Origin: Myxococcota bacterium
GTDB taxonomy: Bacteria > Myxococcota_A > SURF-8
Assembly (NCBI GenBank): GCA_965140415.1
Contig: OZ223209.1
Coordinates: forward strand, 5,280,001 to 5,344,000
Length of the DNA stretch: 64,000 nt
Reading direction: 5' to 3'
Shown here: piece by piece, positions 37,683 through 62,546 of the stretch
How the letters are laid out: each line of letters starts with the position of its first letter
Position numbering within the stretch: the first letter of the stretch is position 1
The notes under the pieces: model-generated
What the model was told of the DNA's origin: nothing
The model's input: only the letters and a program-made list of their open reading frames with translations
The model's database searches: none
Translations under genes and position numbers: made by a program

Positions 37683-39242
37683 TCACCCGGCTTGGGTTGA
37701 TTGCATGCTTTCCCATGCGCCACGGTCGTTGGCCTGCACCTGCTTGCGCACTTCCGGCAGGAAATGATCGGCGCGGGTCAGATAGTCGTGAAAAGCCTGC
37801 ATCGAAAGCAGAAATACCACAACCTGATCCATCGAGGTGATGCCCTCCCGTCCCATTTGAATGGCGCGTTGGAACAACTCCCGCTTGTGGCGGTTGCGGC
37901 TGAATGCATAGCGGCGCGTCAAGGTCGCCATCACGCGCAATTTCTCTCTTGCGGAAACGGGCTGTTTGCCGGAATGCGTGAATGCGCCGTTTTGTAACAG
38001 CGCCAGTCCGCGCCTTTTCACGCCTTCCCAGTCGAACAAGCGCCGCAAAGCATCGAAGTAGCCGTCCAGCAATTCGGTTTGAGACATTTTCATGTAATGA
38101 ATGCAGGGGAATGCCCCGTTGATGAAGCGCCGGTCCACATCGAACAGGCGGCCTTCTTTTTCCATGCGCTCATGCAGATCCGTGCCGGGAGCCACAGCCA
38201 TGACGGAAAGCATGGTGTAGATCAGGTTGTTACGCTCCACGAATTCCAGGATACGGTCGAAGGCGCATAACTCGTCGGCATCGAAACCAACGATAAACGA
38301 CGCCAGCACGTTGACGCCTGCGCCGTGAATGGCGGCGATGGCCTCTTCGTAGTCTGCGCGCAGGTTATGGCGCTTACCGGTTTCCTTCAAACTGTCCGGG
38401 TTGATCGACTCGAAACCGATCAGCACGCTTAAACAGCCGCTCTCCTTCATCAACTGCAACAATTCCGCATCCTGCGCGATTTCGATACTCGACTGGCAGA
38501 CCCAGGAGCAGTCCAGAGGTTTCATTTGCCGGCACAACTCTTTGGCGTATTCCTTGTTTTTGGCGAAGTTGTCCGCCACGAAAAAGAGCCTGCGAATGGG
38601 TAGAGCTTCGATTTCGGCGATGACATCGGAAATTTCGCGGTAGCGCATTTTGCGCCCGAACAGCTTGTTGACCAAACAGAATTCGCAGGAAAAAGGACAG
38701 CCTCGCGAGGTTTCCAGCGGCAGGCTGTTGATTTGCGAAGTGTTCACCAGATCCCAGCGCGGCAGCGCACTCTGCTTGAATTCGCAGATTCCTTCCGCCT
38801 GATAACGTGCTTTCAACGCTCCCCGTTCGAAATCCTCCAATAACGAGGCCCACACGTTTTCCGCCTCACCCAGCACCACCGCATCGGCATGTTGCAGGGC
38901 TTCGTCTGCACATACGGTCGCATACGAACCGCCCATGACGACGGGCACACCGCGCCGCCGGAAGTCATCTGCAATTTTGTAAGCCCGGTCTATCGTAGAA
39001 ACCAAGGTGGTGATCCCGACCAGATCCGGTAAGTTACCGGTCGGGATGCGGTCGGTTTCGTCGTCGATCAAGCGGATGTCGTAATGATCGGGAGTCAATG
39101 CGGCGATCAAAGGCAGCGCCAGCGGCATGGTCATCTTCCGCTTGCCGAGTAAAAGCGACAATTCTTCCTGCGCGCCATAGTGCTTGTAATCCAAGCGCGG
39201 ATTGATCAGCCACAATCGTTTTTTCTTGTTGGATCGATTCAC
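37683..39242 (-). CDS. B12-binding radical SAM protein
   Basis: PLALPLIAALTP, SRGCPFSCEFC; GTG start overlaps upstream stop (GTGA). Confidence 0.88.
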   Translation of the reverse strand: MNRSNKKKRLWLINPRLDYKHYGAQEELSLLLGKRKMTMPLALPLIAALTPDHYDIRLIDDETDRIPTGNLPDLVGITTLVSTIDRAYKIADDFRRRGVPVVMGGSYATVCADEALQHADAVVLGEAENVWASLLEDFERGALKARYQAEGICEFKQSALPRWDLVNTSQINSLPLETSRGCPFSCEFCLVNKLFGRKMRYREISDVIAEIEALPIRRLFFVADNFAKNKEYAKELCRQMKPLDCSWVCQSSIEIAQDAELLQLMKESGCLSVLIGFESINPDSLKETGKRHNLRADYEEAIAAIHGAGVNVLASFIVGFDADELCAFDRILEFVERNNLIYTMLSVMAVAPGTDLHERMEKEGRLFDVDRRFINGAFPCIHYMKMSQTELLDGYFDALRRLFDWEGVKRRGLALLQNGAFTHSGKQPVSAREKLRVMATLTRRYAFSRNRHKRELFQRAIQMGREGITSMDQVVVFLLSMQAFHDYLTRADHFLPEVRKQVQANDRGAWESMQSTQAG

Positions 39243-40669
39243 GAGGGATTCTCCAGATTTGCAGCTTGCATACGTTGTCTGCGAATGCGCAGCAGGCTGC
39301 GGAACATCGGTTCGTCCAGTTTCAATTGCGCCCGTTGCTGCATGGCCTGCTGGATCATCTCCGGGTCCGGGCTGGATTCCAGCGCCGGAATGCAATTTGG
39401 ACGGATAGCGGCGGCCTGTTCGATTCGTTGTGCCAAACGCTGCCTGCCGATACTCGATGATACGTAAAACACCGGACGCAACAGGGAATCCGCAGCCTTT
39501 ATCACACCTTCCTCGCTGGCGATGCGGTGCAGAGCCGTATTCGGATAAATACGAATTCCCTGAGTGATATGAACCATGTCCACCGGATCAATGAAACGGT
39601 CGATGAAATCCAGGCTTTCATCTATGGTCTTGTCCGTTTCGCCGGGCGCGCCGAAAATGAAAAACCACATGGTCGGCATGTCGAGTTTTTTCAAGATGTT
39701 GGCGCACTGCTCCAGCTTTTTGCGGGTGAAGGTTTTCTGAAATGCTTTCAACATGGCCGGGCTGGCGCTGTCGGGAGTGCAATCGATCTGAGCGAAACCG
39801 GCCTGCCGCATCAACTCGATCAACTCTTCCGTTACTCCACCCGGATTGACTCCCATGGTGCGCAGTCGCACCCGCAGACCACGACGAATGATTTCCCGGC
39901 AGATATCCAGGGCATGCGACAAGGGATGGTTGAAGGTGGAATCCACGAACTCGAAGGTCACGTCTCCAAGCCGCTGCTGGGCATCCTCGATTTCGTCTAC
40001 AACCTGATTCACAGGTCGCAGGCGATACTGGCGGCCTTCAATCGTAGGATAGACGCAATACAGGCAATTCAGCTTGCAACCACGCTTGGTTTGAATCGAA
40101 TAGCTTCCCCTGCGGCTGTAAGGGGACCAGTCGAGCCAGCGGTCCAGATGCGCCGGAGGCAGGTCCAATTCGCCATCCTGGATATCAAGCGGCTTGGCCG
40201 CTATGGCGTCGGGCGTTAGTACACCGGGGATTTCCGAAGGATCGCCACCCTTGTCAAGACACTGTAATAACAAGGGAAACACGCGCTCGCCTTCGCCGAT
40301 CACACCGTAATCCGCGCCGAAATCCCATAAAATCGCCTGACCGAAGACGCTGAATCCGGCTCCTCCCAGAATCACGGGAGCCGCGCTTTCTTCGCGGATC
40401 AACGGCATAAATGAGTCTCGGATACCATCCAAATAATAGACGTCGCTGCCCATGACGACATCATCGATGTTGCGAATACCCAAGCCGATGTAATCCGGTT
40501 GAAAATCGCGCAGCAGTTCGCGAAGACCGTCGGTTTTGCGGAAGGTGGCATCGAACAGGCGCACTTCGTAAGCGTTGGCGATGGCACCCGCTACCAGCCC
40601 CAGACCCAACGGCAGAACCGGATAGGGAGCTTTTTCGGAATTGGTATTGATTAAAAGGACTTTCTTCAT
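39239..40669 (-). CDS. B12-binding radical SAM protein (resembles lipid-biosynthesis type)
   Basis: PYPVLPLGL, GIRNIDD, QTKRGCKLNCLYC, FVDSTFN. Confidence 0.88.
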   Translation of the reverse strand: MKKVLLINTNSEKAPYPVLPLGLGLVAGAIANAYEVRLFDATFRKTDGLRELLRDFQPDYIGLGIRNIDDVVMGSDVYYLDGIRDSFMPLIREESAAPVILGGAGFSVFGQAILWDFGADYGVIGEGERVFPLLLQCLDKGGDPSEIPGVLTPDAIAAKPLDIQDGELDLPPAHLDRWLDWSPYSRRGSYSIQTKRGCKLNCLYCVYPTIEGRQYRLRPVNQVVDEIEDAQQRLGDVTFEFVDSTFNHPLSHALDICREIIRRGLRVRLRTMGVNPGGVTEELIELMRQAGFAQIDCTPDSASPAMLKAFQKTFTRKKLEQCANILKKLDMPTMWFFIFGAPGETDKTIDESLDFIDRFIDPVDMVHITQGIRIYPNTALHRIASEEGVIKAADSLLRPVFYVSSSIGRQRLAQRIEQAAAIRPNCIPALESSPDPEMIQQAMQQRAQLKLDEPMFRSLLRIRRQRMQAANLENPS

Positions 40670-40858
40670 ACACGTCGCTCGCAAGATTGCAGAATTTATT
40701 CGAACATTTATCAGGTTACGAAAAATACGGGCTTTTCGTATGAGAGTCAAGCTTGACGCGCACGCCAATATTGACTTTTTGTCAGATTCATTTTACGTTT
40801 CCACGGTCGAACGGCTATAATCCGCAACAGTAGTAATAGTAAAAGCGGTCCTTAGTCA

Positions 40859-41284
40859 ATGAAAACGAGGCGATGGATGACCAAACAGCTGCGTGATGAG
40901 TTCACCTTCCCGGTGACAGTCGAATTCGAGGATGTCGATTCCTACCAGATCGCGCATCATTCCAAGTACGTGTTATACCTGGAACGGGCGCGGCTGCGAT
41001 ATTTCAAAAGCTTGAATTTCAAGCTGGATGCCGGTTCGACCAACGCGGTGCTGTATCACCTGGATATGCAGTTCAAGAAAGTCGCCCGGCTGCTGGATGA
41101 ACTGACAGTCTCCGTTTTCGTGGAAAGCGTGGATGCCTACCGCCTGACGTTGGGATATCGCATCCGCAAAGGGGACGAGCTGATGGTGCGAGCGAAAACC
41201 GTGCTGGCGTTCATCGACTCCGCAAACAAAGAACTGGTTCCCATCCCCCCGGAGTATCTGGAACGCGGAGGATGGACGATTTAA
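40859..41284 (+). CDS. Acyl-CoA/ACP thioesterase (YbgC/4HBT hotdog fold)
   Basis: VEFEDVDSYQIAHHSKYVLYLERAR. Confidence 0.88.
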   Translation: MKTRRWMTKQLRDEFTFPVTVEFEDVDSYQIAHHSKYVLYLERARLRYFKSLNFKLDAGSTNAVLYHLDMQFKKVARLLDELTVSVFVESVDAYRLTLGYRIRKGDELMVRAKTVLAFIDSANKELVPIPPEYLERGGWTI

Positions 41285-41342
41285 CAGCTTGAATGAACAA
41301 GACCGAATCAATCGAGACCGAATCAATACGGAATAGTAAGAA

Positions 41343-42791
41343 ATGAAAATTTGCCTGATCATGTCCGCCTCGCCTACCGATGCACTGCGAGGCTTCGAAC
41401 CCTTCATGCCGCTATCATTGCCTCTGCTGGCAGCGACGGCTCCCGATCACGACTATACGTTGATCGATCAACTGGCCAGCAATGATTCCGTCGATTTCGA
41501 GCGTCATTACGACCTGGTCGGTATCAGCATGCGTATGACGGCGGAAGCGGAAGCGTATCGAATTGCAGATGAATTCAGAAAACGCGGCGTGCCGGTGGTG
41601 ATCGGTGGACCACAGGCAACTGCCCTGCCGCAACGAGCCAAACGACACGCAGATGCCGTTGCCGTCGGTGAGGGCGAGGCGCTATGGCCGATCATCGTTT
41701 CCGATGCCGAACGTGAAGACCTGCACGATTTCTACGTCTGTTCCCCCAAACCTTTCGAAGCCGGGGATGCGCGCGTGTTCCAGTTTCAAGGTTACCCGGA
41801 ACTGGCCGGTCTGGCGCAGCCCTTGCGCAAGCTGTACCCCAAACGCTATCGTTTCGACACGGTCTTCGCCTCGCGTGGCTGTCCGATCAACTGCGACTTC
41901 TGTGCTGTAAGCGGCATGTATGGCTACCGGGCGCGACTGCGACCGGTGGAAGAAGTTGTAGACGAGATCCGAAAATTCAAGAGTTTCTACTACCTGCTGG
42001 ACGATTCGGTTTTCGGGCGGCCTTCTACCTATGATTACTACCTGGAACTGTACGATGCCTTGGCGAAATTGCCGAAAAAGCAGTTCTGGGTCGGACAGGC
42101 AAACCTGGGCGCAATCGCCGATGAAAAAGGGCGCGAAGTCATTCGCCGCGCGGTGGACGCCGGATTCCTGTATGCCATGGTCGGCATGGAATCGATCAAT
42201 CCGCAAGTGTTGGAAAAAACCGGTGTCTTGCGCAAAGCCGGATTGCAAAAGGCTTCACAGGCCGTAGAGGAAATGAAGGAGCAGATCGCATTCCTGCAAG
42301 ACTTGGGTATTGTGGTCAGCGGCTGGTTCACCATGGGCTACGACGATGACAGCCTGCAAACCTACTACGACACGCTGCGTTTCTGCCTGGAAACGAAAGT
42401 CCTGCCGGTGCTCTCGCCGGTCAACGCTCTGCCTGCCACTCCGCTATACGAGCGACTGGCAAAGGAAGGTCGCCTGGATAACGCAGACAGCCTGACCAAC
42501 TATCCGCAACCCAAGATCCCCAAAGAGGACATCATTCAGGCACTGCGCCACAGTGTGGACGAGGGTTACAGTCTGTCCGTCAACTGGAAGAGGCTGGTTT
42601 TTTACCGCAAACGATTCCGCAACGTCAACGGCTCCAGCCCGGAGGACCGCATCAAGAAAACGATTTTCACGGCGATTCTGCAACGCAACATGCCCAAGAT
42701 TCTGCGGCGTGAAATCGACAATCTCGCGAACGAGCAGTCGCAGAATTATTACGAAACAGAGGAGGAACGCAGGGGAGGCAACCTTGGGTAG
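41343..42791 (+). CDS. B12-binding radical SAM protein
   Basis: PLSLPLLAA, VVIGGPQAT, SRGCPINCDFC. Confidence 0.88.
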   Translation: MKICLIMSASPTDALRGFEPFMPLSLPLLAATAPDHDYTLIDQLASNDSVDFERHYDLVGISMRMTAEAEAYRIADEFRKRGVPVVIGGPQATALPQRAKRHADAVAVGEGEALWPIIVSDAEREDLHDFYVCSPKPFEAGDARVFQFQGYPELAGLAQPLRKLYPKRYRFDTVFASRGCPINCDFCAVSGMYGYRARLRPVEEVVDEIRKFKSFYYLLDDSVFGRPSTYDYYLELYDALAKLPKKQFWVGQANLGAIADEKGREVIRRAVDAGFLYAMVGMESINPQVLEKTGVLRKAGLQKASQAVEEMKEQIAFLQDLGIVVSGWFTMGYDDDSLQTYYDTLRFCLETKVLPVLSPVNALPATPLYERLAKEGRLDNADSLTNYPQPKIPKEDIIQALRHSVDEGYSLSVNWKRLVFYRKRFRNVNGSSPEDRIKKTIFTAILQRNMPKILRREIDNLANEQSQNYYETEEERRGGNLG

Positions 42792-43438: not shown

Positions 43439-43514
43439 GCCAACGTAGCTCAGCTGGTAGAGCAGCTGATTCGTAATCAGCAGGTCAGCGGTTCGAGTCC
43501 GCTCGTTGGCTCCA
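43439..43514 (+). tRNA. tRNA-Thr(CGT)
   Basis: GCCAACG/CGTTGGC acceptor stem, GCTGA-TTCGTAA-TCAGC anticodon arm, TTCGAGT T-loop, encoded CCA; 76 nt. Confidence 0.97.
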
Positions 43515-43797: not shown

Positions 43798-44658
43798 TCA
43801 CATCGCCTTCCAGGTTGCGATGTACTCCGCCACACCAGCATGGATGTCCGCTGGGCTGTCCATCGTCCAGGCTCCCGACAAGCCCAATGCCTTCGCCGCA
43901 GCTTCCAGGTGCTGCATGGCGATGCCCATGTCGATCATCTGCAGGTCCGTGGAGGGCACCAGCCGTCGGTAACGTGGCGTGCGGGCCAGGTAGAGGTGTA
44001 GGTTCTCTCCGTCCATCACGATCCGCCATGGCTGCTTGTTCGAGGCGGAAGGGCCGATGCGCACCATCTCAAGCACCTCGGCGTACTCCCCGGCTCTCTC
44101 ATGGCTCAGCGGGTACGTGAAGTCGCTGTCGAAGAATAGCTCGCCAAAGGGCTTGCGGTTATTCGCCTTGGCGCCCCAGCGGATGAGCCGCTTCACTGTC
44201 CCTTTCCGCTTGGCGGGAACCCCGAGCGCCAGGATGGCGGGCACCCAGCTCCGATCATCCAGCCGCAACACCTGCGCGTATTCCTTGCGGCTGAAGGTGC
44301 CGCCCAGCCAGCACGTGCCCAGGCCCAGGCACGTCATCTCAAGGACGATCTGCTCCATGACATAGCCGAAGTCCACCTCGGCCATTTTGCCATGTTTCAG
44401 CGCCCCGGCCACGAAGTACGGCGCGCCCGAAATAAAGCCGTAGGTGCCGAGCCGGACCTTTTCGTCTTGTTGCGCCTTGCTGCGCTCGATCAGGGCGAAG
44501 CGGACCTGGTGGCCGAAGGGGCCGGATCCCGGATCGACAAGGATCGCCTCGACCTTATGGCGGACACCCGGATTCAAGGGCTGATCGGCGTAGGTGCGGA
44601 CGGATCGGCGGTTGCGGATGGTGTCGAGCGTGGAAATGGTATCAGTTCCTTCTTGCAT
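43798..44658 (-). CDS. Nitroreductase family protein (tandem-domain type)
   Basis: RRSVRTY, LGLGTCWLGGTF, GPSASNKQPWR, IDMGIAMQH. Confidence 0.88.
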   Translation of the reverse strand: MQEGTDTISTLDTIRNRRSVRTYADQPLNPGVRHKVEAILVDPGSGPFGHQVRFALIERSKAQQDEKVRLGTYGFISGAPYFVAGALKHGKMAEVDFGYVMEQIVLEMTCLGLGTCWLGGTFSRKEYAQVLRLDDRSWVPAILALGVPAKRKGTVKRLIRWGAKANNRKPFGELFFDSDFTYPLSHERAGEYAEVLEMVRIGPSASNKQPWRIVMDGENLHLYLARTPRYRRLVPSTDLQMIDMGIAMQHLEAAAKALGLSGAWTMDSPADIHAGVAEYIATWKAM

Positions 44659-44670
44659 GAATTGTCTCCT

Positions 44671-45444
44671 TCACATCACCCCCAGCACCCAGCCTTCCAT
44701 CGTTTCCGCGATATCGAGTTCCGCTTCCGTCAACTGCGGATGAAAGTACGCCTCTAGGCGACCGGTAAGGTCCATTTCGGATAACCAGCGCGCCACCGCG
44801 TAGGCGTCGTGTTCGTGCGGATTGCGATCCGTTTTGGAATATCGGCGGCTGAACATAGATGGATAGATTTCCGCGATGACCGATTTGTCCTCCGGCGGCG
44901 TCCAACCATCAAAGGGCCAGAAATGGACCCGGTCGCCGATTTCCTTTCGGATGTGTGCCAACCAGGGGATGCCCGCCCAGCTCGATTTCCCCACCATGCC
45001 GGGACCGTCAAAGCGAAACACGCTCTTAGCGCTCGGTGTCCAGGTTTCAGTGATTCGTAGCTCGTCGGGAAAACCACCTGGTGGCGGTGAATCATAGACT
45101 TCCCAAAGCATATCGACGTAAACGGCTTCATGCGCGGGCCACAGGCGGGGAAAGACTTCCAGCAACTGGTTCCAATCGCGCACGCCCTGGCGTTTGAACC
45201 AGGCAAGAGGCAAAGAAAAGCAATGGTCGATACCAACAATGATCCGTTCGGAGGACAGGCGCTCGACCAGCCACTCAGCTATGATCCGTCGGGACCATTT
45301 CTGGGGGCCGTGTGGACGAGCGTCCGGAGTAGAGACGCGCCGGGGTGCCTCGCCTTTGTCGGATTGGTAGACAGCCAGTCCTTTCAGGCGGCTTTCAGCC
45401 GTTTCCGCCCCGGAGTAGTCAATGCCGATGTATGAGTCGTACAT
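44671..45444 (-). CDS. Predicted RNase H-fold protein (DUF429-like)
   Basis: YIGIDYSGA, VGIDHCFSLP, R.TE, FWPFDGW, AEIYPS, HEHDA, EGWVLGV. Confidence 0.6.
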   Translation of the reverse strand: MYDSYIGIDYSGAETAESRLKGLAVYQSDKGEAPRRVSTPDARPHGPQKWSRRIIAEWLVERLSSERIIVGIDHCFSLPLAWFKRQGVRDWNQLLEVFPRLWPAHEAVYVDMLWEVYDSPPPGGFPDELRITETWTPSAKSVFRFDGPGMVGKSSWAGIPWLAHIRKEIGDRVHFWPFDGWTPPEDKSVIAEIYPSMFSRRYSKTDRNPHEHDAYAVARWLSEMDLTGRLEAYFHPQLTEAELDIAETMEGWVLGVM

Positions 45445-45448
45445 GGTT

Positions 45449-47497
45449 TCACCCAAATTCGTGGCGTCCGTTTGACCGGTTTCGAGCAAAAAGCGTCTTC
45501 GCAAATGCGGCAATCGAACCACCAGACAATGCGGTTTTATCCATCAACTGATAGGTTGTTCCATCCTCCAGCCAAATCATACCTGTTGCCGTCTCCAGGC
45601 ACATGCTTGGCGTGCTCTCACCAGATAGAAACCAGAAGCGATAAGCCGGGATGCCGAGCAGGTCGTCTGGCAGGTGATGTTCCAAGCGACGCCCTGCGTC
45701 CGGGAAGGATTGGAAATCTCTCCGTACCCCGCAGCCCTCATCGCCGGAGCTGTCGAAATAGCCGTTGTGGCAATCAACTCGAGAGGCAGTGGTAAGCGCC
45801 CGTATGAGGTAGGCGGCAATGAATTCGTAGACGTAAACAGCCGGTGTTGGCATTGGCGTCGGTCCATCCGGCTTGTGGCCGATCCAGCGCAAACATGCCT
45901 CCGGTAGATTCTCCCTGTTTGCGACAAGCTCCATCCAGTCCCGACGTCGGTTTAGCGTCCGGTTACCGTTCAGTGCGGAAAAGACATGGAAGCCGCCCTT
46001 GAGATTGAGATCGGCAATGTGTTGGTTGTTCCGATCATGAAGGGATAGGCAATGATACTGCCCGCCACCGGGATAGGTTTCGATCAGCTTTAGATCAGGC
46101 CGCATTCGGAGAATCACCGCCATGGCCGAAAAGGCATGGGCCATTAGAAAGGTTGGATTACTGAAGTTGCGCCGCTGTTGCTCTTGACTCATGGCCAGAA
46201 GGTTGCGCAATGACGCACGAAGCGCTTCTCGCGCTTCTATATCTCCCAGAGGATGGCTGATGTTGACTTCTCGCACCAGGATACGGCGCGCCGAATCTTC
46301 CTCTTCACGTCTCTGATGGCGGTAGGTGGTCGCATGTGTTGTGTTGTCAGACAGCTTCGGACTTAGCGGATAAAGCAGTGTGACGCGTCCGACATCGTAC
46401 TCCCGTCCATAGGCGTACATCTGGTAGATGTCGCTCTGGGATACGCCCCCATGTGGCTGACTGGAATCGAGTTCCTTCCACTTCGTGTCGATCAGTTCCG
46501 AGATCGTTCTTTCGCGGAAAACACCGATGTCGGGACACAAGCGGAATTCACCTCTGCCGTTCCGGCGAAGTAGATGCTTCGACGCCAGCTGCGGTTCGAT
46601 GGTGATGTTCGGATCATCGACGGCTGCCTTCAATTCCTCGGCAATGAAGCGTTCGAAGACGACATTCATGTCGAACATAAGCGAATAGACTTCGCGCCCG
46701 CCGGTGTCCCGCTCGCCGGACGTTGCGCCGATGATCAGCGTCGCCAGATTGAGCAGCGGCTCGAAGCGCTTCAGGTTTCGGTCGAGGGGAAGATGCTCCC
46801 CGTTCATCAATTCAACAGGCTCGTCCGCCACATCGTCGAAAAGTGCGACTAATTGAGTTGCACGGCGCGAGACGTCGTTGCTGAAGACCTGCCGCTCACA
46901 GATGCGTAAGGCTGATTTAAGGCGTCGCGAGAAACGATTGTCGGACTCAAATTCGTCTGCCGCCGTGAAGAAACGTTCCTTGTGAACCAGGTTGTGGCGG
47001 ATTTGCTCCTGGAAAAGCAGCTTGCCGCGCAGGTACGGGCGATTCTCTTCCTCCCTTACATATCGTCGAATCGGTCCTCGCGTCCATTCGCGGAACAATT
47101 CCCGCACGTAAAGATCCATGAAAGCTACGATCAGCGGGTTATCCGAATGCGCCAGTGCCGCGATGTGAGCAGGATGAACCGGCACCAGTCCGGCTGTGGC
47201 GATCATGTGCAGCAAATTTTCCATTGAGCCGCACAGGCCGTCTGGATCATTCGGACGGTCGATTTTCGGAACGACATCGACACAAGTCGATCCCACACCT
47301 AACGAGCCGACCCATTGGGTCGCCTTCAAGCTGTCCAAACCGAGCTTGAAATAATCGATACCTATACGTTTCTGGTAGCGATCGATAGCATAGGCCTGTT
47401 GTCGGCTTAGCGAGCGTTCATTCACATGGAATCCGTCCGAGACAATGATTGTCTCGTGCTCGCGGATCAAGATGCGTTGGCCTCGTCCCATCACCAT
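45449..47497 (-). CDS. mcrC: McrC-family PD-(D/E)xK nuclease with ~245-aa C-terminal extra domain
   Basis: VVPKI, LRGKL, FDMNVVFERF, PDI..IDTKWK, DIYQMYAY. Confidence 0.88.
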   Translation of the reverse strand: MVMGRGQRILIREHETIIVSDGFHVNERSLSRQQAYAIDRYQKRIGIDYFKLGLDSLKATQWVGSLGVGSTCVDVVPKIDRPNDPDGLCGSMENLLHMIATAGLVPVHPAHIAALAHSDNPLIVAFMDLYVRELFREWTRGPIRRYVREEENRPYLRGKLLFQEQIRHNLVHKERFFTAADEFESDNRFSRRLKSALRICERQVFSNDVSRRATQLVALFDDVADEPVELMNGEHLPLDRNLKRFEPLLNLATLIIGATSGERDTGGREVYSLMFDMNVVFERFIAEELKAAVDDPNITIEPQLASKHLLRRNGRGEFRLCPDIGVFRERTISELIDTKWKELDSSQPHGGVSQSDIYQMYAYGREYDVGRVTLLYPLSPKLSDNTTHATTYRHQRREEEDSARRILVREVNISHPLGDIEAREALRASLRNLLAMSQEQQRRNFSNPTFLMAHAFSAMAVILRMRPDLKLIETYPGGGQYHCLSLHDRNNQHIADLNLKGGFHVFSALNGNRTLNRRRDWMELVANRENLPEACLRWIGHKPDGPTPMPTPAVYVYEFIAAYLIRALTTASRVDCHNGYFDSSGDEGCGVRRDFQSFPDAGRRLEHHLPDDLLGIPAYRFWFLSGESTPSMCLETATGMIWLEDGTTYQLMDKTALSGGSIAAFAKTLFARNRSNGRHEFG

Positions 47498-47503
47498 GGC
47501 TGA

Positions 47504-49786
47504 TTACTCATAGATCTTGCGCAGGCTCTGGGCCGTCAAGTCGTCGGTTACTTTGTACGTGCGCTGCAGCGATACTTGGTTATTGGGGAAACGCAACGCT
47601 GCGGCATCCGGGACCGTGTGGGCGATGATGGCGTTCGCCGGGTCACGCAGAGCGGGAAGGTGATCCCGATCCTTCTGATCGCCGAGATCGTTGAAGATCA
47701 GCTGCAACTTCTCCCAATCCTCGTAGAAGTATTCCTGCAAAAGCGGGATGATGCGGTCGAGGAACGTTTGCTTTAATTGCTCGAAGCTTTCGATACCGAT
47801 AAAGTAGGAATGCCCGATCTGGTGATCCCGATCCATCAGAACCTCGATGCGGGCATTCATCGCGTCCAGCAATTTCTTGAGATCGATGGATTCACCACCA
47901 TCGGGCGCGTCGATTAAGCGCTTTCCTTTGACGTCATCGATATCGAAAAGATCAGAATCTGGCATCAGTTCGACGAAGGTGAAGCGCCTCCGGAGCGCCG
48001 TATCCATCAGGGCGATGGATCGATCAGCGGTGTTCATGGTGCCGATGACGTACAGATTGTCGGGAACGCCGAAAAGCGGCGCGCCGGGGTTTTGGCTGTG
48101 TGAGTATGGCAGTTTCACGCGCAGGCCATCGGTCCACTCGCCCTTATCTGCGTTCCAGGTCATGCGTTTGTCCGGCTCCAGGAGCGTAATCAATTCGCCC
48201 AGCACTTTGGAGATGTTGGCCCGGTTGATTTCATCGATAAAGAGAGAGTAGTTGTTGTTCGGATCTCGAACGGCGTCCTTGACGATCTGCTTGAAGATGC
48301 CGTCCATGACGCGGTAGCTGATGCCGCCTCCAAGCTCATCATCTTCCTCTGCAACTGGTTTGATGCCTTCCACGAAATCCTCGTAACTGTAAGACTGATG
48401 GAAGGTGATCATTTCAAAGCGGTTGTCCGTTTCCTCCGTCGGCTCGTATTCCTCCAATTCTTGCTGAATTTCCAACAATTCCGGTGCTTCCTGCTCGATC
48501 TTCTCATCGATTACACGCCAGGAACCATCGGCTTCCTTGAAGAAAATCTGGGGCTGGTTGCGGCGATTGTACTTTACATTCTTGCAATCATCAACCGTGT
48601 GAAGCATTAGTTGAGCCCATAGAGTGTTGGGAATATTGCTCGAATTCGCCTGTTTCACCCGTGCTTGGGTGTAGGGATGCTCATGGATGTCTTTCACCTT
48701 GCAGGTTCCCATATCCAATACGGCCAAGGCAATGGCCTGCCACCAGGTGAGCGTGGAGATACGCTGTTCGGCGTATTTCTCCTTAGTGATGGCCGTACCA
48801 ACGCTACGGAACTTCGGCATGTACTCCGTCTGTAGCCTGTACGTCTTCCCCGTTCCCGGCGGGCCGTAAAGGATGAGATTGAGCGGAAGATCGATGTTTT
48901 CCGGTTCTACGATTGGACCATCGCCCAAGTAAGCCAGCAAGGAGTCTTCTGAATGGTATGGCGGCTTTCCTTCCGCCGCTTCGTAAGAGATAACCGGGAA
49001 ATCGGAGCCTATCTTTTTCCGCACGGTTTCCAACAGGTTTCGGTAATCCTCGATCGTCTTAATGGTGGGATCGATACCACGTTTGCGAAGGTAGGACGCT
49101 ACCGGCCCATCCACCGGCAGGAAATGCTCCGGATCGAGCCAGAAAAAGCCCATGGTAAGCTTGCCAACACCAACTGAAAGGATCCCCAAACATTGCTGAA
49201 AGAGTTCGTTGGAGATATTTCCCGGATCGCCGGTGATACATGCTTCGGCAATGTCCCACAGGTTGTCGATATCATTGGGACCGCGATGCTCCGCCTGGCC
49301 GAAAAAACGACTGCCGATCTGATTGACGCTCGGAATACCATACAAATCCGTGGGCAGGTCTTCCTCGATTCCGAGCCGCTCCTTGAAAATCGTCAGCATG
49401 GCCAATCGCTTGTTGAAGTCCGAACCAGACCCGCGATTGAATGCTCCGATGAAAGTGAACGGGTCGATGATGTCGAGTGTCTGAATGCTTCCGTCTAATT
49501 GACGGTCGTCCATTTTCGTGACCTTGTGGCCCGCCTCGCGCATCTCCGAGAGGATGCCGATCAGTTCCGGCTGCCGATCCCGGTACGCCATCACCTTGCG
49601 CGCCTGCTCCTGATAGAACGGCACCCAGGAGAAATAGGTTTTACCCTCGGCAGAGCCGCGTGGATTTTTTTTACGCCACGTCTCGCCCTCCGGACCTTTC
49701 CAGAGCCTACTGATTTCTCTAAACGGGAGTCCTTGGAGACGCTTTTCCCGTGCGAATAAATTCCAACTGCTCAGAGGTTTGCTCAT
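47504..49786 (-). CDS. mcrB: McrB-family AAA+ GTPase
   Basis: [52 protein letters not shown]. Confidence 0.93.
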
Positions 49787-49813: not shown

Positions 49814-50542
49814 CTAAAATACGATCCCTCCCGGCCCATACGCCAGCACCGTTTCTTTGTGTTTGAAAGCGTACTTTCCGGCCTTGTATCGGTCTACATG
49901 TCGCACGATGCGCATTGGCATCACATCCGTGAAGCTGCAAAAAGTCACCGTGATCGTACCACCCTTACGCGACACGTTCGGTCGCCAATCGTCCGGTTTC
50001 TCTTTTTCCCAGTGCCACGCTTCAATCATTTCCGGATCGTAGCCGAAAAAGAAGTTTTTCTTGTCCATTTGAAAGGGATCCGCGTCGAAGACGATGTGTT
50101 CGCCCCAGGAAATGCCATGCCAGATCGCACCGAATTCGGCCAGCTCACGCGCCAGGATGGACGCTTCGAGGTAAGAGCGCAATGAGCCGTCACCGTCAAT
50201 GGCCTGCATATAGTCGTCCAGCGCGCCTGGAACGATGGGCGGTTCGAGAAAAACATCCTCCCGTCGCTCGCATGTGTCGGGATCGGGCAGTAGTATAGAC
50301 TCCGGCAAAGCGTAAACGATGGCGTTGCCGTTGTATCCAGATCGGAATTGACAGGCTCGCAGGGCGTAGCCCTCGCGTACATGCAGCTTCGGAAACGCAT
50401 CGACAAGCATCATTGGGCTGGTGGTGCTCTCAGACCAACCCTGCGGACCGTCCATGTCGATCTCGGCCAGATGGTTGACCTTATTCCGCCAGCGCTTGAT
50501 CATCGTGGCGGTGAAGGTTTCTATGTTTGTTCCAGACTTCAT
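49814..50542 (-). CDS. Hypothetical protein
   Basis: 242-aa globular-looking ORF, co-oriented and closely spaced within the operon. Confidence 0.7.
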   Translation of the reverse strand: MKSGTNIETFTATMIKRWRNKVNHLAEIDMDGPQGWSESTTSPMMLVDAFPKLHVREGYALRACQFRSGYNGNAIVYALPESILLPDPDTCERREDVFLEPPIVPGALDDYMQAIDGDGSLRSYLEASILARELAEFGAIWHGISWGEHIVFDADPFQMDKKNFFFGYDPEMIEAWHWEKEKPDDWRPNVSRKGGTITVTFCSFTDVMPMRIVRHVDRYKAGKYAFKHKETVLAYGPGGIVF

Positions 50543-50573: not shown

Positions 50574-51062
50574 TCATGCTTTACCGGTCGTACTGTCATT
50601 CACTTCCCGCAGGATCTCCAGAACCAGTCGATTGGGTCTGGCATATGGATGATCCTTCTTGAAATGCTCACTATCCAGTCCGTATTTCTCTACGATAAAG
50701 AGGCAAATAGCCGTTGAGCGGGATACGCCTGCATTGCAATTTACAACAACGGTTTCAACCCTGCTTTCGACTTCCTCAAGGAACGAAATGACTCGCCTGG
50801 CCATCTTTGCATCAAAATACACAAAGTTATCGTCAGTGTTTCCAAACAGCGGCGAAACATCGTCGAATGAAAGGAATAAAGAATCGACAAGATTCTCCGG
50901 TGGATGCAAAGCATCTACCTCGTCTAGTAAATGAGGTTCCGAGCTTCCCTTCACCGAAATCAGCGCCCAAGGCGTATCGAGTCGAAATCGTATTGCTCCC
51001 GTTTCGCCTTGTAACACAGCGAGCGCCTGATCCAGCGAAATGGCAAATGTTCGATTGATCAT
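50574..51062 (-). CDS. CX5R (tyrosine/dual-specificity-like) phosphatase
   Basis: LSFDD, VVNCNAGVSRSTA, PNRLV. Confidence 0.85.
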   Translation of the reverse strand: MINRTFAISLDQALAVLQGETGAIRFRLDTPWALISVKGSSEPHLLDEVDALHPPENLVDSLFLSFDDVSPLFGNTDDNFVYFDAKMARRVISFLEEVESRVETVVVNCNAGVSRSTAICLFIVEKYGLDSEHFKKDHPYARPNRLVLEILREVNDSTTGKA

Positions 51063-51086: not shown

Positions 51087-51575
51087 TCAGTTCTCACTCG
51101 TAAATTCTTTGTCCAAATTCCAACGCTTACCGGAACATTCCGGCAAAAGCCTTCTATAATCACCCAAATTAAAAACCCTTACATTTTGACAGTCCTCGGG
51201 CAATTCATTCACTGAAGCAGAGTTGTAGGCAGGACCGTGGCTGAAAATGAGAAGTCCTTCAACTCGTTTAAGTAAAGCAGGGTCTTCTCCCTTGTTAGGA
51301 TTGATTGGCGTGATTTCGCCAAAATATACTTGAAGATTGCGTGTATCCGATGTCCACTCATGTGGTTTTTTCAAAATTCCATGCTCTTTAAGTCGATCTT
51401 TGAGATCACGCTTGGTTTTTCCGATGTAAAGAAGGACATTGTCTCCATAAACAGGATGGCAGCCATATATTTGATATATTCCGTTTGTATTTGTTTTTTC
51501 GTCGTTCTCTGGAACATCCCTGAACTGAGCGGGCTCCCAACTAATTGTAACTTCGATCTCGTTTTCGTTTGTCAT
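51087..51575 (-). CDS. GIY-YIG nuclease family protein
   Basis: GIYQIYG..LLYIGKT..RLKEH..VEGLLI..PAYN. Confidence 0.85.
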   Translation of the reverse strand: MTNENEIEVTISWEPAQFRDVPENDEKTNTNGIYQIYGCHPVYGDNVLLYIGKTKRDLKDRLKEHGILKKPHEWTSDTRNLQVYFGEITPINPNKGEDPALLKRVEGLLIFSHGPAYNSASVNELPEDCQNVRVFNLGDYRRLLPECSGKRWNLDKEFTSEN

Positions 51576-51578
51576 CTT

Positions 51579-54500
51579 TCATTCTCCTTTCAATTGTTCC
51601 CTCCCCACCGGCATCCGCTGCGGGGCCGTCTTCCACATCAGGTCGATTTCCTCGGGGGTGAGGCCGTAGGCCTGGTTGACGAGGTCGGCTAGGCGGCGCT
51701 CGTGCTGCTGGGCTTCAGCGGTGCGGCGCTGCATGGCGGGGACGGTATCCTCGTAGGCCTCGCGCAGTTCCTTCACCCCGCTAACACTCAGCTTACCCGC
51801 CGCTTTGGGGTGGCGTTTCTTCACTTCGGCCATGAAGGCGTCGAAGTACAGGGCGGCGGCGTCTTGCAGCTTCAGGCCCGGTTGGTCGATGGACTGGATC
51901 TGCTTCAGCCAGTCGAGCAGGTCGCGCTGGGCGCTCTGGTTGGCGCGGGTCAGTTCGATCAGGGCCGCCACGTGCTCCTCGGCCTCGGCGCGGATGACTT
52001 CGGTGGGTGGGGCGATGGGGAGTTTTTCCATCAGGTAGCCTTGCGTGCCCAAGGCTTCATCCTTGCCATGCGGCAGATAGCGCCAAGTGAACCACCACAT
52101 CAAGGGGGAGTTGAGAACTGCGAGCAGGTAGAAATCGCTTGTCGGGATAATGAAGGTCTTGTTGTTGCCAATCAATCCGCTTTCATCAAATCCATAAGCT
52201 GAATGAAACTGGATCTCCTGGTAGAATATTTTCGGTGCATCGTAAATTGCGTATGTGTCAGCGCTTTTTTGAAGTTGCCACCATTCTTGTGATCCTGCTC
52301 TCTTTTCCAATCGTTCCCGATGCGAGAGCAGATGTTCTTTGATGGCTGGATAAGCATCGATATCTAGCGAATTGTGAGCAGCGATTAGCCAGACATCAGC
52401 AAATTCCAATGTCCATCGCTTCACATCCTTGCCACGAACAAACGGCTTGATAACTTCCGCAGATTTGGGATCTCTCGCTATCAGCTCTTTTCTCTGTTCT
52501 GGAGTAATTACAAATGCTGCGTTGTAGCCGGTTTTTATTCCCCAATGTGGAACATCCCCGCAATACTCTTTTAGCAATTGTCCCGATTTTACAATCTTCT
52601 GGAATAGGGTTTCAACTTCCACCGGATCCAGACTCCACGCCTGTTCAGTAAACCGCGACCAAGGCACTTCGTAGCCGTGTTGGCGAACGAACTGCTTGAG
52701 GTTGATGTCGGCCAACTTCTCACGCGGCACGGGGCAGATGATCACCGGCGCGGCAGGTTCAGGCTTAGGCTTCACTTCCGCGATGGGTGCATCCGGCTTG
52801 CGCACCGACACGATGCAGGGGAAGACGTCGGCATCCTCGAAAATGGGCGCGTGACCGAAGTCGAGGATCTGCTCGAAGACCGTATGCTCGGCGAAAAAAC
52901 GCCGCAGCGCTTCGCCATAGCCGGACTTCAGCCACTTGTTCGTCACGATGAACGACAGCACGCCACCCGGCTTCAGGGCCTGCACGCCGCGCTCGTAGAA
53001 GTAGGTGTACAGATCCGCCACGCCGTCGAAGGAATGGTAATGCTCTTTCAGATACGGTTTGATGGGCGAAAGCAGCTCCTGGCGAACGTAGGGCGGGTTT
53101 CCAATCACCACGTCGAAACCGCTTGAGACATTGTCTCCATCGGCGAATACAGCCGCGAAGCGCGCCCGCCAGTCGTAGGGCGTTTCCGAATAGGCCGGAT
53201 CGTCCACGATGGAGTCGCCTTGCTGGATGTTGTCGTCCAGGAAGGTCAACGGCTTGCCGCGCTCGGCGGTCTTCAGCCACAGGCTGAGCTTGGTGATCTC
53301 CACCGACTCCTTCGAGAGATCCACGCCGTAAAGATTGTGATTGAGGATGGTCTTGTTAAGACCAAAAATATCCTGCTGCCCGCCCTCGAAAGCCGCCAGG
53401 GCATCGTTGACGCGCTCGTACTGCGCCAGCAAGTAATCGTATGCCGCAATCAGAAACGCGCCGGAGCCGCAAGCCGGGTCCAGTACGCGGGTACGCTTCA
53501 GCACCTCGTCACGGTAGGTCTCCCAGAACTCGCGCTCGGCCGTGGCTAGCTTGCGCCCGTGCGCTTCAGGAATGGCGTCCAGCCCGATGCGTTGGCGAAG
53601 TTCCTCTTCCTTGCGCCGCAGATAACCACCCAGCGCCACGTCCACGATGTACTGCGTCACCATCGCGGGCGTGTAATAAACGCCTTGGGTTTTGCGGCGG
53701 CCCTTCTTCTTATCGAAGTCCTCGCCGGACGCAGCGGCTTTCAACTCCTCCAGGTCGGTGACCGACTGCTCGAAGATGTGACCCAGCACCTCGACCGACA
53801 CGTCCGTATCGAAATCATAGCGCGTGATGGCGTTCAGTTCGTCGCACAACTCGTCCGGCAGACTGATCTGTTCGTCTATGACCGGATCCGGCTTGAACAG
53901 CCCGCCGTTGTAGCCTTTGATATCCAGGTTGTTGTTGCCTGTATCTACCCAACGAAACACGGCCTTATAGCGCGTCCAGATGGCGGTCGGATTGTACGGA
54001 TCCTTATGCTTATAAGCCTTGTTGATTGTGTTGGGGGGTAAAAGTCCACGATCCTCACAAAACGCGATGAACAGCACGCGGTCGAGGATCTTCTGCGCCG
54101 TCTCGATCATAGCGGCCTTGTCGCCGTCCGCTTGCTCCGTCAGGTATTGCACGAGCTTAAGGCGCGTGTCCTTGTACTCGGCGTAAAGCGCCTTGGTGAT
54201 CGCCTCCTCGGCGTTGTCGGATTCTCGCAGCAGCGCATCCACGCGGGAATCGCCATCCGGTCTGGATTCCAACGGCAGGAAGTTCTCGGCGCAGAGCAGG
54301 AAGTAGAAGCGTCGGAAAACGGTTTCGTCGGCCAGGTCGGACAGCTTGAAACGCTCGTAGAAGGCAGGTGTCTTGCTGGTGCGGTAGAGGCGGATCTCGC
54401 GATAGTTGCTGACCAGCACCCACTTGCAGCCCTCGGTGTAGTTGGCGTAGCGCCAACCTTGCTCGACGGCGGATTCCGTGCGCCCGGAGGCGGGACGGTC

Positions 54501-54896
54501 GAGATTGTTGACCGCGCCCTTCAGCTCGATCGGCGCGACAATGCGACCTTTCAGGCGCGTGGCCTTGCTGGCGGATTCGGTGGCGGTGAAGAAGCCCAGC
54601 GCGCCATCGGCGGAGCCACCGCCATCGGAGATATGCGCCTCGGCGTGCAGCGTCCAGGCTTCACCTTCTCCCTGGATGACGGAACGATAGCCCAGCACCT
54701 CGCCGAAGATGTCGCGCAGAAACTCGCCGTGCAGCGAAACTTCCTTGATGACATCCAGTGTGCCGCGCTCCAGAGAGGTGATCCAGCGCGCCACCACGGC
54801 CCGGCGGGTGTCCATATCGGACGGAAAGGCAAAGCCCGCCATCGCTTTGGAGAGCGTCTTTTCATGAAACAAGGGTTTGACGTGACCTGTGGGCAT
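51579..54896 (-). CDS. Type IIG (Eco57I-like) fused restriction endonuclease / amino (probably N6-adenine) methyltransferase
   Basis: ADGALG..IELKG..Q..Y nuclease motif; YNGGLF; LDPACGSGAFL; GNPPYV; TaqI_C-like TRD. Confidence 0.92.
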   Translation of the reverse strand: MPTGHVKPLFHEKTLSKAMAGFAFPSDMDTRRAVVARWITSLERGTLDVIKEVSLHGEFLRDIFGEVLGYRSVIQGEGEAWTLHAEAHISDGGGSADGALGFFTATESASKATRLKGRIVAPIELKGAVNNLDRPASGRTESAVEQGWRYANYTEGCKWVLVSNYREIRLYRTSKTPAFYERFKLSDLADETVFRRFYFLLCAENFLPLESRPDGDSRVDALLRESDNAEEAITKALYAEYKDTRLKLVQYLTEQADGDKAAMIETAQKILDRVLFIAFCEDRGLLPPNTINKAYKHKDPYNPTAIWTRYKAVFRWVDTGNNNLDIKGYNGGLFKPDPVIDEQISLPDELCDELNAITRYDFDTDVSVEVLGHIFEQSVTDLEELKAAASGEDFDKKKGRRKTQGVYYTPAMVTQYIVDVALGGYLRRKEEELRQRIGLDAIPEAHGRKLATAEREFWETYRDEVLKRTRVLDPACGSGAFLIAAYDYLLAQYERVNDALAAFEGGQQDIFGLNKTILNHNLYGVDLSKESVEITKLSLWLKTAERGKPLTFLDDNIQQGDSIVDDPAYSETPYDWRARFAAVFADGDNVSSGFDVVIGNPPYVRQELLSPIKPYLKEHYHSFDGVADLYTYFYERGVQALKPGGVLSFIVTNKWLKSGYGEALRRFFAEHTVFEQILDFGHAPIFEDADVFPCIVSVRKPDAPIAEVKPKPEPAAPVIICPVPREKLADINLKQFVRQHGYEVPWSRFTEQAWSLDPVEVETLFQKIVKSGQLLKEYCGDVPHWGIKTGYNAAFVITPEQRKELIARDPKSAEVIKPFVRGKDVKRWTLEFADVWLIAAHNSLDIDAYPAIKEHLLSHRERLEKRAGSQEWWQLQKSADTYAIYDAPKIFYQEIQFHSAYGFDESGLIGNNKTFIIPTSDFYLLAVLNSPLMWWFTWRYLPHGKDEALGTQGYLMEKLPIAPPTEVIRAEAEEHVAALIELTRANQSAQRDLLDWLKQIQSIDQPGLKLQDAAALYFDAFMAEVKKRHPKAAGKLSVSGVKELREAYEDTVPAMQRRTAEAQQHERRLADLVNQAYGLTPEEIDLMWKTAPQRMPVGREQLKGE

Positions 54897-60634: not shown

Positions 60635-60838
60635 ATGCGAATGCTTCACCTGAATGGGCAGCATGTGGTATTCTTCTGCGATCGTTGCGGCAAACGATTG
60701 AACGACGATGACCCCGGCACACCCCACTGGGAGGACTACGACCGCTTCCTGGAGACGGTTGGGATAGAAGATGAGGTGGAGACGGAGTTGTTGTGTGGAG
60801 AGTGTGTGGTGAAGAAATGGAGCAGAATAAATGAATAG
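60635..60838 (+). CDS. Small zinc-finger protein
   Basis: FCDRCG...LCGEC; overlaps the downstream mcrB start by 8 nt. Confidence 0.65.
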   Translation: MRMLHLNGQHVVFFCDRCGKRLNDDDPGTPHWEDYDRFLETVGIEDEVETELLCGECVVKKWSRINE

Positions 60839-62543: not shown

Positions 62544-62546
62544 GTG

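Follow-up and report, generated by a model that had tools for sequence, protein, structure and literature searches.

A 64,000-nucleotide (nt) stretch of the genome of a Myxococcota bacterium (contig OZ223209.1, positions 5,280,001 to 5,344,000; hereafter the window) encodes an McrBC-type restriction system whose nuclease subunit, McrC, runs in frame into a TY-Chap2 domain. McrBC is a textbook two-component restriction enzyme, and TY-Chap2 has so far been described by computation alone, within systems centred on an ADP-ribosylglycohydrolase (ARG). Here the two are joined in one stop-free frame of 682 amino acids (aa) (P0001; 45449..47497, minus strand). We conclude, with a probability of roughly 0.6, that this is a real, lineage-specific gene fusion in which TY-Chap2 acts as an accessory subunit, with a sensor or guard as the favoured role, at the nuclease end of the enzyme. 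The fusion marks TY-Chap2 as a likely working partner of McrC-type nucleases and, together with operons in three phyla in which the same genes stand separately, points to a subset of McrBC-type systems with a third, tightly coupled component.

The McrC core of the protein (residues 1-435; 46193..47497, minus strand) consists of a DUF2357-type N-terminal part and a PD-(D/E)xK nuclease, and Pfam matched residues 57-377 to the entire McrBC profile PF10117 (positions 1-318 of 318, E 2e-70). When the protein was aligned with 11 related McrCs, each 413-450 aa long, the core was seen to end near residue 435, where the relatives' own sequences stop; identity to these standalone proteins was 42-51% for ten and 32% for the eleventh. 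The catalytic residues D323, D337 and K339 are intact and were invariant across 43 sequences including P0001. The initial annotation, made from the letters of the sequence, had described a stop-free extension from about this point and had named the motif ETxPGGGQYxCL as a mark of TY-Chap2. The extension and the motifs quoted for it are all present: residues 436-682 (45452-46192, or 45449..46192 with the stop codon, minus strand) begin MSQEQQ and hold LIETYPGGGQYHCLSL, NGYFDSSG, PAYRFWFL and CLET. The motif ETxPGGGQYxCL is the family signature, whose consensus over 40 aligned members is IETHPGGGQYDCLSL; the signature ETHPGGGQYDCL occurs in the fused copy as ETYPGGGQYHCL. Searched by itself, as the annotation had proposed, the excised extension scored 80.3 bits with the TY-Chap2 family PF22553 (cutoff 27, E 2.4e-22), and the match spans profile positions 11-219 of 223, which indicates that the extension is a full-length family member and not a chance open frame. 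The match was also recovered from the whole protein (residues 463-671, E 2.7e-21, 76.8 bits), a six-frame search of the genome gave the same result, and the domain aligned end to end with 39 standalone members. No PADLOC model matched the fused protein or its tail.

The origin of the fusion was traced by comparing the junction with operons in which the genes are separate. The same gene order, with a gene each for McrB (717 aa), McrC (449 aa) and TY-Chap2 (242 aa), is found in a Geobacteraceae metagenome-assembled genome (MAG; locus L015); with 386 bits for McrB and 639 bits for McrC (the latter against a profile of P0001 and its relatives) this locus was the closest to the window among the 71 loci surveyed below. 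Its junction reads GAGGGAatATGA, the TGA stop of mcrC overlapping the ATG of TY-Chap2 as ATGA, with GAGGGA before it. Another MAG of the Myxococcota, of the same order as the source genome (G009; contig C59, locus L010), likewise encodes McrB, McrC (450 aa) and TY-Chap2 separately, the mcrC stop TGA being followed by 13 nt that include AAGGGA and then by ATG. TY-Chap2 in related operons thus has a start codon to itself, preceded by a purine-rich run, and forms a separate protein of about 230-245 aa. In the window, the McrC frame agrees with its relatives up to LRNLLA and the junction (46186..46198, minus strand) reads ...CTG GCC ATG AGT..., the McrC frame entering the ATG with which the TY-Chap2 gene once began. 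Standalone members have N-termini to which the first residues of the tail (MSQEQQ...) can be aligned, in keeping with this ATG being an ancestral start codon. These comparisons show that the fusion joined two adjacent genes of an mcrB - mcrC - TY-Chap2 operon in this lineage. The window keeps the ATGA tetranucleotide and has no purine-rich ribosome-binding run upstream of the ATG; an A after ATG is expected by chance one time in four, which weighs against taking ATGA as a relic. The simplest origin would be a small frame change upstream of a former ATGA overlap: within the final few codons of mcrC, a shift of +1 or -2 nt would have brought mcrC into the frame of the TY-Chap2 ATG. The predicted product is one protein with an intact PD-(D/E)xK nuclease followed, with almost no linker, by a complete TY-Chap2 domain, and the fusion would make an existing partnership between TY-Chap2 and the nuclease covalent.

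The source genome (G000) is a single contig (C1) of 5.98 Mb, 93.7% complete, and carries the fusion twice. Copy B (C1:3329003-3331051), about 2 Mb from copy A in the window, has the same 682-aa frame with both domains and is 95.7% identical to it in amino acid sequence. A block of about 3.8 kb, 88% identical at the DNA level, is common to both loci and reaches from the gene downstream of the fusion (P0004) to the 3' part of mcrB. Identity within it is mosaic, with 100% over about 1.2 kb (window ~45845-47044; C1 ~3329400-3330600) and 57-98% in the flanks, a pattern suggestive of recent gene conversion, with two paralogous defence cassettes as partners. Copy B's McrB, 891 aa long, shows no relationship to the window's McrB in its N-terminal part, beyond window position ~48870; the same McrC::TY-Chap2 and a gene like P0004 come after it. 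A fused cassette made up of 3' mcrB, mcrC::TY-Chap2 and P0004 thus stands twice in the genome, behind McrBs with unrelated N-termini, its 1.2-kb tract apparently homogenised by gene conversion. Neither copy has a stop or an indel within the 247 tail codons.

The company kept by TY-Chap2 elsewhere was surveyed in a census of 71 loci, one genome per species, for which the canonical peptide [EQ][TM]HP[GC][GS]GxYD was required, so that divergent members such as the window's own were not retrievable. The TY-Chap2 open reading frame (ORF) was kept if longer than 300 aa, together with at most two same-strand ORFs per side with gaps below 300 nt; ORFs on the opposite strand, farther off or beyond two genes were dropped. 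The 162 kept ORFs were scanned with Pfam at E ≤ 1e-5, and the counts, made by hand, come from a simple ORF caller and motif-biased loci. A recognised nuclease was found in the same ORF or the kept neighbours at 25 of the 71 loci. Six of these are of McrBC type, three with PF10117 (L010, L015, L029) and three with DUF2357/PDDEXK_7 plus a partner of 772-783 aa (L011, L012, L018), which in L011 has McrB's Walker-B and sensor motifs (BLASTP E 1e-6). GmrSD (L024, L028, L073), a REase-ARP fused to TY-Chap2 (L050, L056, L058) and type I HsdR or type ISP enzymes (L042, L068, L079) account for three loci each; PLD (L014, L069), GIY-YIG or T5orf172 (L036, L070) and NOV_C, which we take to be nuclease-like (L020, L023), for two each; and HNH_2 fused to TY-Chap2 (L065), ERCC4 (L017), REase_MTES_1575 (L041) and HEPN (L047) for one each. 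At eight further loci the kept neighbours were only a helicase, ATPase or methyltransferase, and ARG or PARG stood beside TY-Chap2 at just four (L035, L039, L052, L066). TY-Chap2 lies directly 3' of the McrC-like gene in five of the six McrBC-type loci (4-nt overlap or a gap of at most 35 nt), and every relative found with McrBC next to TY-Chap2 encodes them as separate genes. Two loci hold two TY-Chap2 genes each, in tandem after GmrSD in L028 (6279-7678) and flanking an ARG-DSPc gene in L035 (435-3372).

In a maximum-likelihood tree of 66 TY-Chap2 domains, the window copy was sister to that of L010 (support 100/99), and all seven McrBC-linked rows fell within one subtree of 14 rows (84/85). 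The McrBC label needs four changes on this tree, as few as were found in 2 of 500 shuffles, a comparison in which many of the McrBC-linked rows are Geobacteraceae kin and not independent. Very close relatives within the same subtree adjoin PF10117 McrC, DUF2357/PDDEXK_7, ERCC4, PLD/SNF2 or DUF429. The partnership of McrBC with TY-Chap2 is therefore clustered on the tree, yet partners are exchanged.

The fused domain was modelled with AlphaFold2 from a 40-sequence alignment (pLDDT 92, pTM 0.91), giving two tandem helix/beta-meander/helix modules (domain residues ~5-109 and 116-239), each of which matches small alpha/beta sandwiches. The model agrees with the available text of Iyer et al. 2022 (PMC9503650), which describes TY-Chap2 as two tandem beta-meander copies, each flanked by two helices. 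Foldseek gave no match to the model at E ≤ 0.001 in the Protein Data Bank (PDB; best 0.2) or the viral BFVD (best 0.068). The best VIA-align scores were obtained with Med17C (Z 7.4), Nqo15 (6.5), frataxin/CyaY (5.8-6.3) and DUF419/YjbR (5.2-5.3), followed by the T3SS (type III secretion system) chaperones AvrPphF ORF1 (4.4), SicP (4.0) and Spa15 (3.9) and by DR_1245 (3.9), all within what the tool classes as its middling or common (noise) range. Membership in the TY-Chap2 family, as the initial annotation had it, is thus firm, whereas the further link it drew to the T3SS-chaperone superfamily or a YbjN-like fold is weak in the predicted structure (Z 3.9-4.4; no significant PDB match in Foldseek). 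A predicted complex of the McrC core (A3) with TY-Chap2 (A2) scored 0.01 and 0.00 against a mark of 0.32, in a run without controls, and is evidence neither way.

Since TY-Chap2 partners many catalytic folds, has a near-neutral charge (family median pI 6.7, median net charge -1) and is dispensable for most McrBC, it probably lies outside DNA recognition and catalysis and is likelier to bind a protein or small ligand. A role as DNA mimic or DNA binder is not suggested by the charge. The nuclease-rich census, the few loci with ARG or PARG, and the lack of an ARG match in the source genome make TY-Chap2 look like a general accessory of restriction nucleases. The census thereby widens its likely role from the handling of ADP-ribosylated proteins to that of a general accessory of DNA-targeting defence enzymes. 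In the mechanism we propose, TY-Chap2 would be a stoichiometric accessory subunit at the nuclease end of McrBC, as it would be elsewhere with many unrelated restriction nucleases; it would bind a protein or ligand and link the activity of the nuclease, or protection, to an invader-derived cue, for which an anti-restriction protein or a phage modification put on host proteins are candidates. A sensor fits the habit of TY-Chap2 of sitting beside many unrelated restriction nucleases, and we put forward this specific mechanism tentatively, at somewhat short of even odds, as an inference. If the domain does sense phage proteins or inhibitors, type IV restriction would have a novel mode of regulation; a guard would give modification-dependent restriction a second, protein-level sense of infection that is independent of ADP-ribosylglycohydrolases, and McrC::TY-Chap2 would be a Rosetta-stone case showing physical coupling. 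The broader proposal makes TY-Chap2 a third subunit that is widespread among restriction nucleases (McrBC, GmrSD, type I/ISP, REase-ARP and others) and serves as a guard: on binding either an anti-restriction protein of the phage or a modification that the phage imposes on the enzyme, it would keep the nuclease on or switch it on. In that general form the proposal is rather unlikely. Comparing the fused with a truncated protein, or an L015-type operon with and without its third gene, would be a simple test system for the role of TY-Chap2.

Several observations weigh against the overall reading, that of a real fusion with TY-Chap2 as a working subunit. Close TY-Chap2 kin sit beside different nuclease folds, which argues against a fold-specific docking surface. 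The idea of peptide binding rests on a weak likeness to chaperone folds and is thus merely compatible with the data, and a literature search found no experimental study of any TY-Chap2 protein. The junction at 46192 lies inside the tract of 100% identity, so that copies A and B are not independent witnesses to the fusion. The fusion is also rare. In a search of 5.8 billion clusters, all 49 homologues of whole P0001 were proteins of 402-450 aa with PF10117 only. A HMMER search of 1.84 billion representatives with the tail gave 378 matches at E ≤ 1e-3, and among the 150 matches listed there was no other McrC::TY-Chap2; nearly all tail relatives among them were proteins of 130-280 aa. The five longest listed besides P0001 (556-1289 aa) are without McrC, three joining REase-ARP/PDDEXK_13 to TY-Chap2 (P0129, P0145, P0177) and two having an N-terminus with no assigned family (P0118, P0195). 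A profile search limited to 455-2000 aa returned five proteins, of which P0001 was the sole McrC fusion; three of the others are 467-470 aa long (P0204-P0206) and one is a DUF429::TY-Chap2 protein (P0207). The initial annotation had suggested looking for further McrC fusions, and none was found beyond this genome, while fusions of TY-Chap2 to other nucleases do exist.

The same picture was obtained within the phylum, where TY-Chap2 was present in 12 of 401 genomes and a frame of about 684 aa in the source genome only. One other genome (G248) has a 594-aa frame (550-aa ORF) in which Pfam finds TY-Chap2 only, and local profiles detected no McrB or McrC within about 1.5 kb on each side of the other ten TY-Chap2 loci. 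The tail had no tblastn match at E ≤ 1e-3 in 50,697 phage and 72,556 plasmid records. When the tail by itself was searched for homologues of near length by a word-based method, none was returned, a blank that reflects the limited sensitivity of that method, since the exhaustive HMMER search found relatives. Two side observations concern the longer proteins: P0204-P0206 have in common an N-terminal half of about 250 aa with no assigned family, and at L013 (5399-7594) a DUF429 gene lies just upstream of a 467-aa TY-Chap2 protein.

A fusion unique to one genome may be a recent accident and not an adaptation. According to this alternative, which survives best and which we still regard as unlikely, the event was neutral or mildly harmful, McrBC is unchanged, and the TY-Chap2 tail is relaxed or decaying; if the domain is inert, the gene would be a tidy example of fusion at an overlapping stop and start. 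Besides uniqueness in every search, the state of the domain speaks for it. The fused TY-Chap2 keeps the family residue at 22 of the 30 positions with conservation of at least 85% and departs from it at eight (S20A, W21F, H40Y, D47H, R64L, R123E, W139V and Y220T), with H40Y and D47H inside the signature motif. These eight departures are the most among 40 sequences; the next highest count is six, 32 of the 40 have 0-3, and the sister from G009 has five. They could reflect adaptation to tethering or relaxation, the latter of which would count against a working domain. Between copies A and B, the ratio of non-synonymous to synonymous substitution rates (omega) was 0.13 in McrC codons 1-150 (synonymous divergence, dS, 0.63), codons 150-550 are identical, and omega rose to 0.35 in TY-Chap2 codons 550-682, an estimate based on just 15 substitutions (7 synonymous, 8 non-synonymous). 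Their synonymous excess is marginal (one-sided binomial p 0.048) and points, if weakly, away from an accident, as do the 247 codons open in both copies, the confident and complete model, and the duplication or homogenisation of the cassette behind two different McrBs.

It is quite unlikely that the domain is part of a countermeasure to ADP-ribosylation, in which TY-Chap2 would bind host proteins, perhaps McrBC, that a phage has ADP-ribosylated and McrBC would be a second-line effector. This follows the published hypothesis for TY-Chap1-3, and TY-Chap2 was defined in systems built around ARG, the predicted purpose of which is to counter ADP-ribosylation by viruses; TY-Chap proteins are found there with rhodanese-phosphatase enzymes, and the listed companions include phosphatases (R-P/DSP, calcineurin-like, HD or HAD) and WYL or Nudix regulators (Iyer et al. 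2022, PMC9503650). The four census loci with ARG or PARG agree with it. Phosphatases of the listed kinds lie near both copies of the operon, a DSPc-like ORF in copy A and a calcineurin-like phosphoesterase (Metallophos) in copy B, and the island also holds a WYL-WCX gene, about 9 kb from the operon. Against this, ARG (PF03747), the defining enzyme, had no match anywhere in the single-contig genome (completeness 93.7%); in the control search, 7 of 14 reference genomes gave one. Membership in an ARG-centred anti-ADP-ribosylation system was rejected for want of this core gene. Pfam also detected no domain for processing ADP-ribose in either operon copy, the DSPc match is below the Pfam cutoff, and the census neighbours are mostly nucleases and not ADP-ribose enzymes.

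A built-in inhibitor, by which TY-Chap2 would hold the nuclease off until released and so limit self-damage in the manner of an immunity protein, is very unlikely. TY-Chap2 does stand directly beside or fused to a nuclease, with translational coupling in L015, and VIA-align matched its model to the toxin-immunity-type folds of TriTu (Z 5.1) and PIM7 (Z 4.3) and to PsiB (Z 4.1). Those scores sit in the tool's noise band, and within this one close TY-Chap2 lineage the nuclease partners have unrelated folds. The 49 McrC-only relatives indicate that most McrBC need no such inhibitor, in a comparison made at the level of the McrC protein.

An artefact, in which a false indel in sequencing or assembly erased the stop between two genes, is highly improbable: a single-contig genome may be built from long reads and a systematic error could recur in a tract identical in both copies, but separately built contigs of two runs agree base for base and the McrC frame matches its relatives to residue 435. 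The initial annotation had proposed to check the sequencing data near 46190. Logan contigs of two runs of one study span the junction (46192) free of differences and gaps (run X1, a piece of 1670 nt at 45428-47097; run X2, a piece of 292 nt at 46032-46323), and they contain no insertion or deletion in 45300-47600. An X2 contig carries exactly the three substitutions of copy B (45782, 45801 and 45843), showing that both copies are visible in the reads. The runs are probably of the same study as the assembly and may be of the same sample, which makes them independent of the assembler and not of the sample. The junction at 46186..46198 contains no homopolymer. The fused frame is real DNA and not an assembly slip. 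The initial annotation had said that relatives always encoding the two parts separately, together with a stop lost only in this assembly, would tell against it; the separate coding is what was found, and the loss of the stop as an assembly error was not.

The system was compared with those in the literature. Canonical McrBC of the E. coli K-12 type pairs an McrB GTPase with an McrC made up of DUF2357 and a PD-(D/E)xK nuclease, and McrC homologues can carry extra domains (available text of Bell et al. 2024, PMC11090510). The window has the adjacent mcrB and mcrC, an McrB with AAA_5 and NxxD, a full PF10117 match and an intact D...DxK; it differs in the 247-aa C-terminal TY-Chap2, in the N-terminal ~290 aa of McrB, which match no known family, and in the genes P0005 upstream and P0004 downstream, and its targeting of modified DNA is putative. 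The REase-ARP::TY-Chap2 proteins resemble P0001 in PF22553, in an N-terminal nuclease of PD-(D/E)xK fold with TY-Chap2 at the C-terminus, and in a defence-island setting, whereas the nuclease of the window is an McrC needing an McrB motor in a genome without ARG. The separate-gene operons (L015 and L010/G009, with the DUF2357/PDDEXK_7 versions L011, L012 and L018) have the gene order and tight spacing of the window, and G009 also a P0005-like upstream gene; unlike theirs, the TY-Chap2 of the window is fused and lacks the purine-rich run.

A chaperone-like module joined to an McrC-family protein, fused or separate, is also known from type III CoCoNuTs, where, in the available text of Bell et al. 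2024 (PMC11090510), an Hsp70-like module is fused to the McrC homologue in III-A (CnuCD) and separate in III-B and III-C (CnuD). That module consists of Hsp70 nucleotide- and substrate-binding domains (NBD/SBD) at the N-terminal, DUF2357 side, whereas TY-Chap2 is unrelated and C-terminal. CoCoNuTs as described there have NxD GTPases and coiled coils, unlike the NxxD McrB of the window, and membership in a CoCoNuT subclass was rejected on this motif and because Pfam found no coiled-coil or second nuclease domain. In the literature searched, the terms TY-Chap, TY-chaperone and TY-Chap2 occurred only in Iyer et al. 2022 (PMC9503650), the main text of which, in the portion available, has no McrB or McrC, while its supplement could still list an McrC context. 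TY-Chap, YbjN and PF22553 are absent from the available text and four supplementary files of Bell et al. 2024 (PMC11090510). As far as these searches reach, neither the operon of McrBC with TY-Chap2 nor its fusion is in print, and they place two known families in a new architecture and a new context.

The fused gene lies in a tightly spaced operon on the minus strand, which reads 5' to 3' as a DSPc-like ORF, P0005, McrB, McrC::TY-Chap2 and P0004. The McrB-type GTPase subunit (P0003, 760 aa; 47504..49786, minus strand) ends with its stop 6 nt before the McrC start. It matched AAA_5 (E 2.9e-15) and, over its C-terminal two-thirds, the NCBIfam McrB model (E 4.2e-43, a partial match below the equivalog cutoff), and its translation shows the NxxD motif as MNTADRS. 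Its family-less N-terminus is presumed to be the specificity domain.

The downstream gene P0004 (257 aa; 44671..45444, minus strand), whose ATG lies 4 nt after the stop of the fused gene, is present in both operon copies and is under purifying selection between them (dN/dS 0.165, dS 0.565). Its conserved motifs are GIDYSGA, GIDHxFSxP, AExYP and HxxDA. Its family has four copies in the genome, 63-90% identical (the others at C1 2726314, 3328228 and 4089866), two of them with integrase or serine-recombinase genes nearby. Across the phylum the family turns up in 24 of 401 genomes, frequently apart from McrBC. P0004 was considered as a specific partner of TY-Chap2 and rejected, as two further copies in the genome and the G009 homologue lie elsewhere. 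Its nearest Atlas clusters, found as language-model neighbours, are named 'putative DUF429' at 0.98, and its Foldseek list was mostly RNase H folds, non-significant at a best E of 0.057. Pfam gave no match at E ≤ 10, BLASTP no similarity to the DUF429::TY-Chap2 protein P0207, and jackhmmer only its own paralogue, which ruled out DUF429 (PF04250) at the sequence level. The conserved acidic motifs, the language-model neighbours and the list of folds suggest that P0004 may be an RNase H-like or DUF429-like enzyme.

Upstream of McrB, P0005 (242 aa; 49814..50542, minus strand) matched nothing in Pfam, NCBIfam or PADLOC, and its Atlas clusters are named 'hypothetical' only. G009 has a close homologue at the same place (199 aa; L009 14734-15333, minus strand), which is shorter with a diverging C-terminus and may be frameshifted. 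The DSPc-like phosphatase ORF (162 aa; 50574..51062, minus strand; PF00782, E 1.8e-7, 31.5 bits, below the cutoff of 33.5) possibly belongs to the same string of genes. In copy B, the calcineurin-like phosphoesterase comes right after P0004, followed by an AbiEi/AbiEii pair and an integrase. The McrB region of G009 (L009 11805-14574, minus strand) comprises two overlapping ORFs, one of 340 aa with Mrr_N, the first 40 residues of which resemble the N-terminus of the window's McrB, and one of 606 aa with AAA_5; the specificity subunit is either split in this genome or interrupted by a frameshift. Shortly downstream of TY-Chap2 in G009, past an 89-aa ORF, lies a 1140-aa CHAT-domain protein (L010 8017-11439, which equals L009 6001-9423, minus strand; CHAT E 5.3e-9, with a weak Csx29-like match).

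Other defence-type genes surround the operon. A tRNA-Thr (CGT) gene (43439-43514, plus strand), about 1.2 kb past the 3' end of the operon and beyond a nitroreductase gene (43798-44658), may mark the boundary or integration site of an island that reaches to at least 64 kb. A weak GIY-YIG-like ORF (162 aa, 51087-51575) adjoins the gene for an MmeI/Eco57I-like type IIG enzyme (1105 aa; 51579-54896, minus strand; Eco57I, MmeI_Mtase, TaqI_C and MmeI_TRD). The segment 55352-59845 holds a DnaB_C-like ORF of 276 aa, the WYL-WCX regulator (56496-57521) and a NERD-UvrD helicase (58148-59845). A second, unrelated McrBC pair (60831-63998, plus strand) consists of an McrB of 570 aa with AAA_5 and an McrC of at least 485 aa (PF10117, E 1.5e-28) that runs off the window, bringing the McrBC systems of the genome, with copies A and B, to three. 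Upstream of the tRNA gene, the translations of two large ORFs at 39239-42791 show CxxxCxxC motifs (CKLNCLYC and CPINCDFC) typical of radical-SAM type proteins, to which both may belong.

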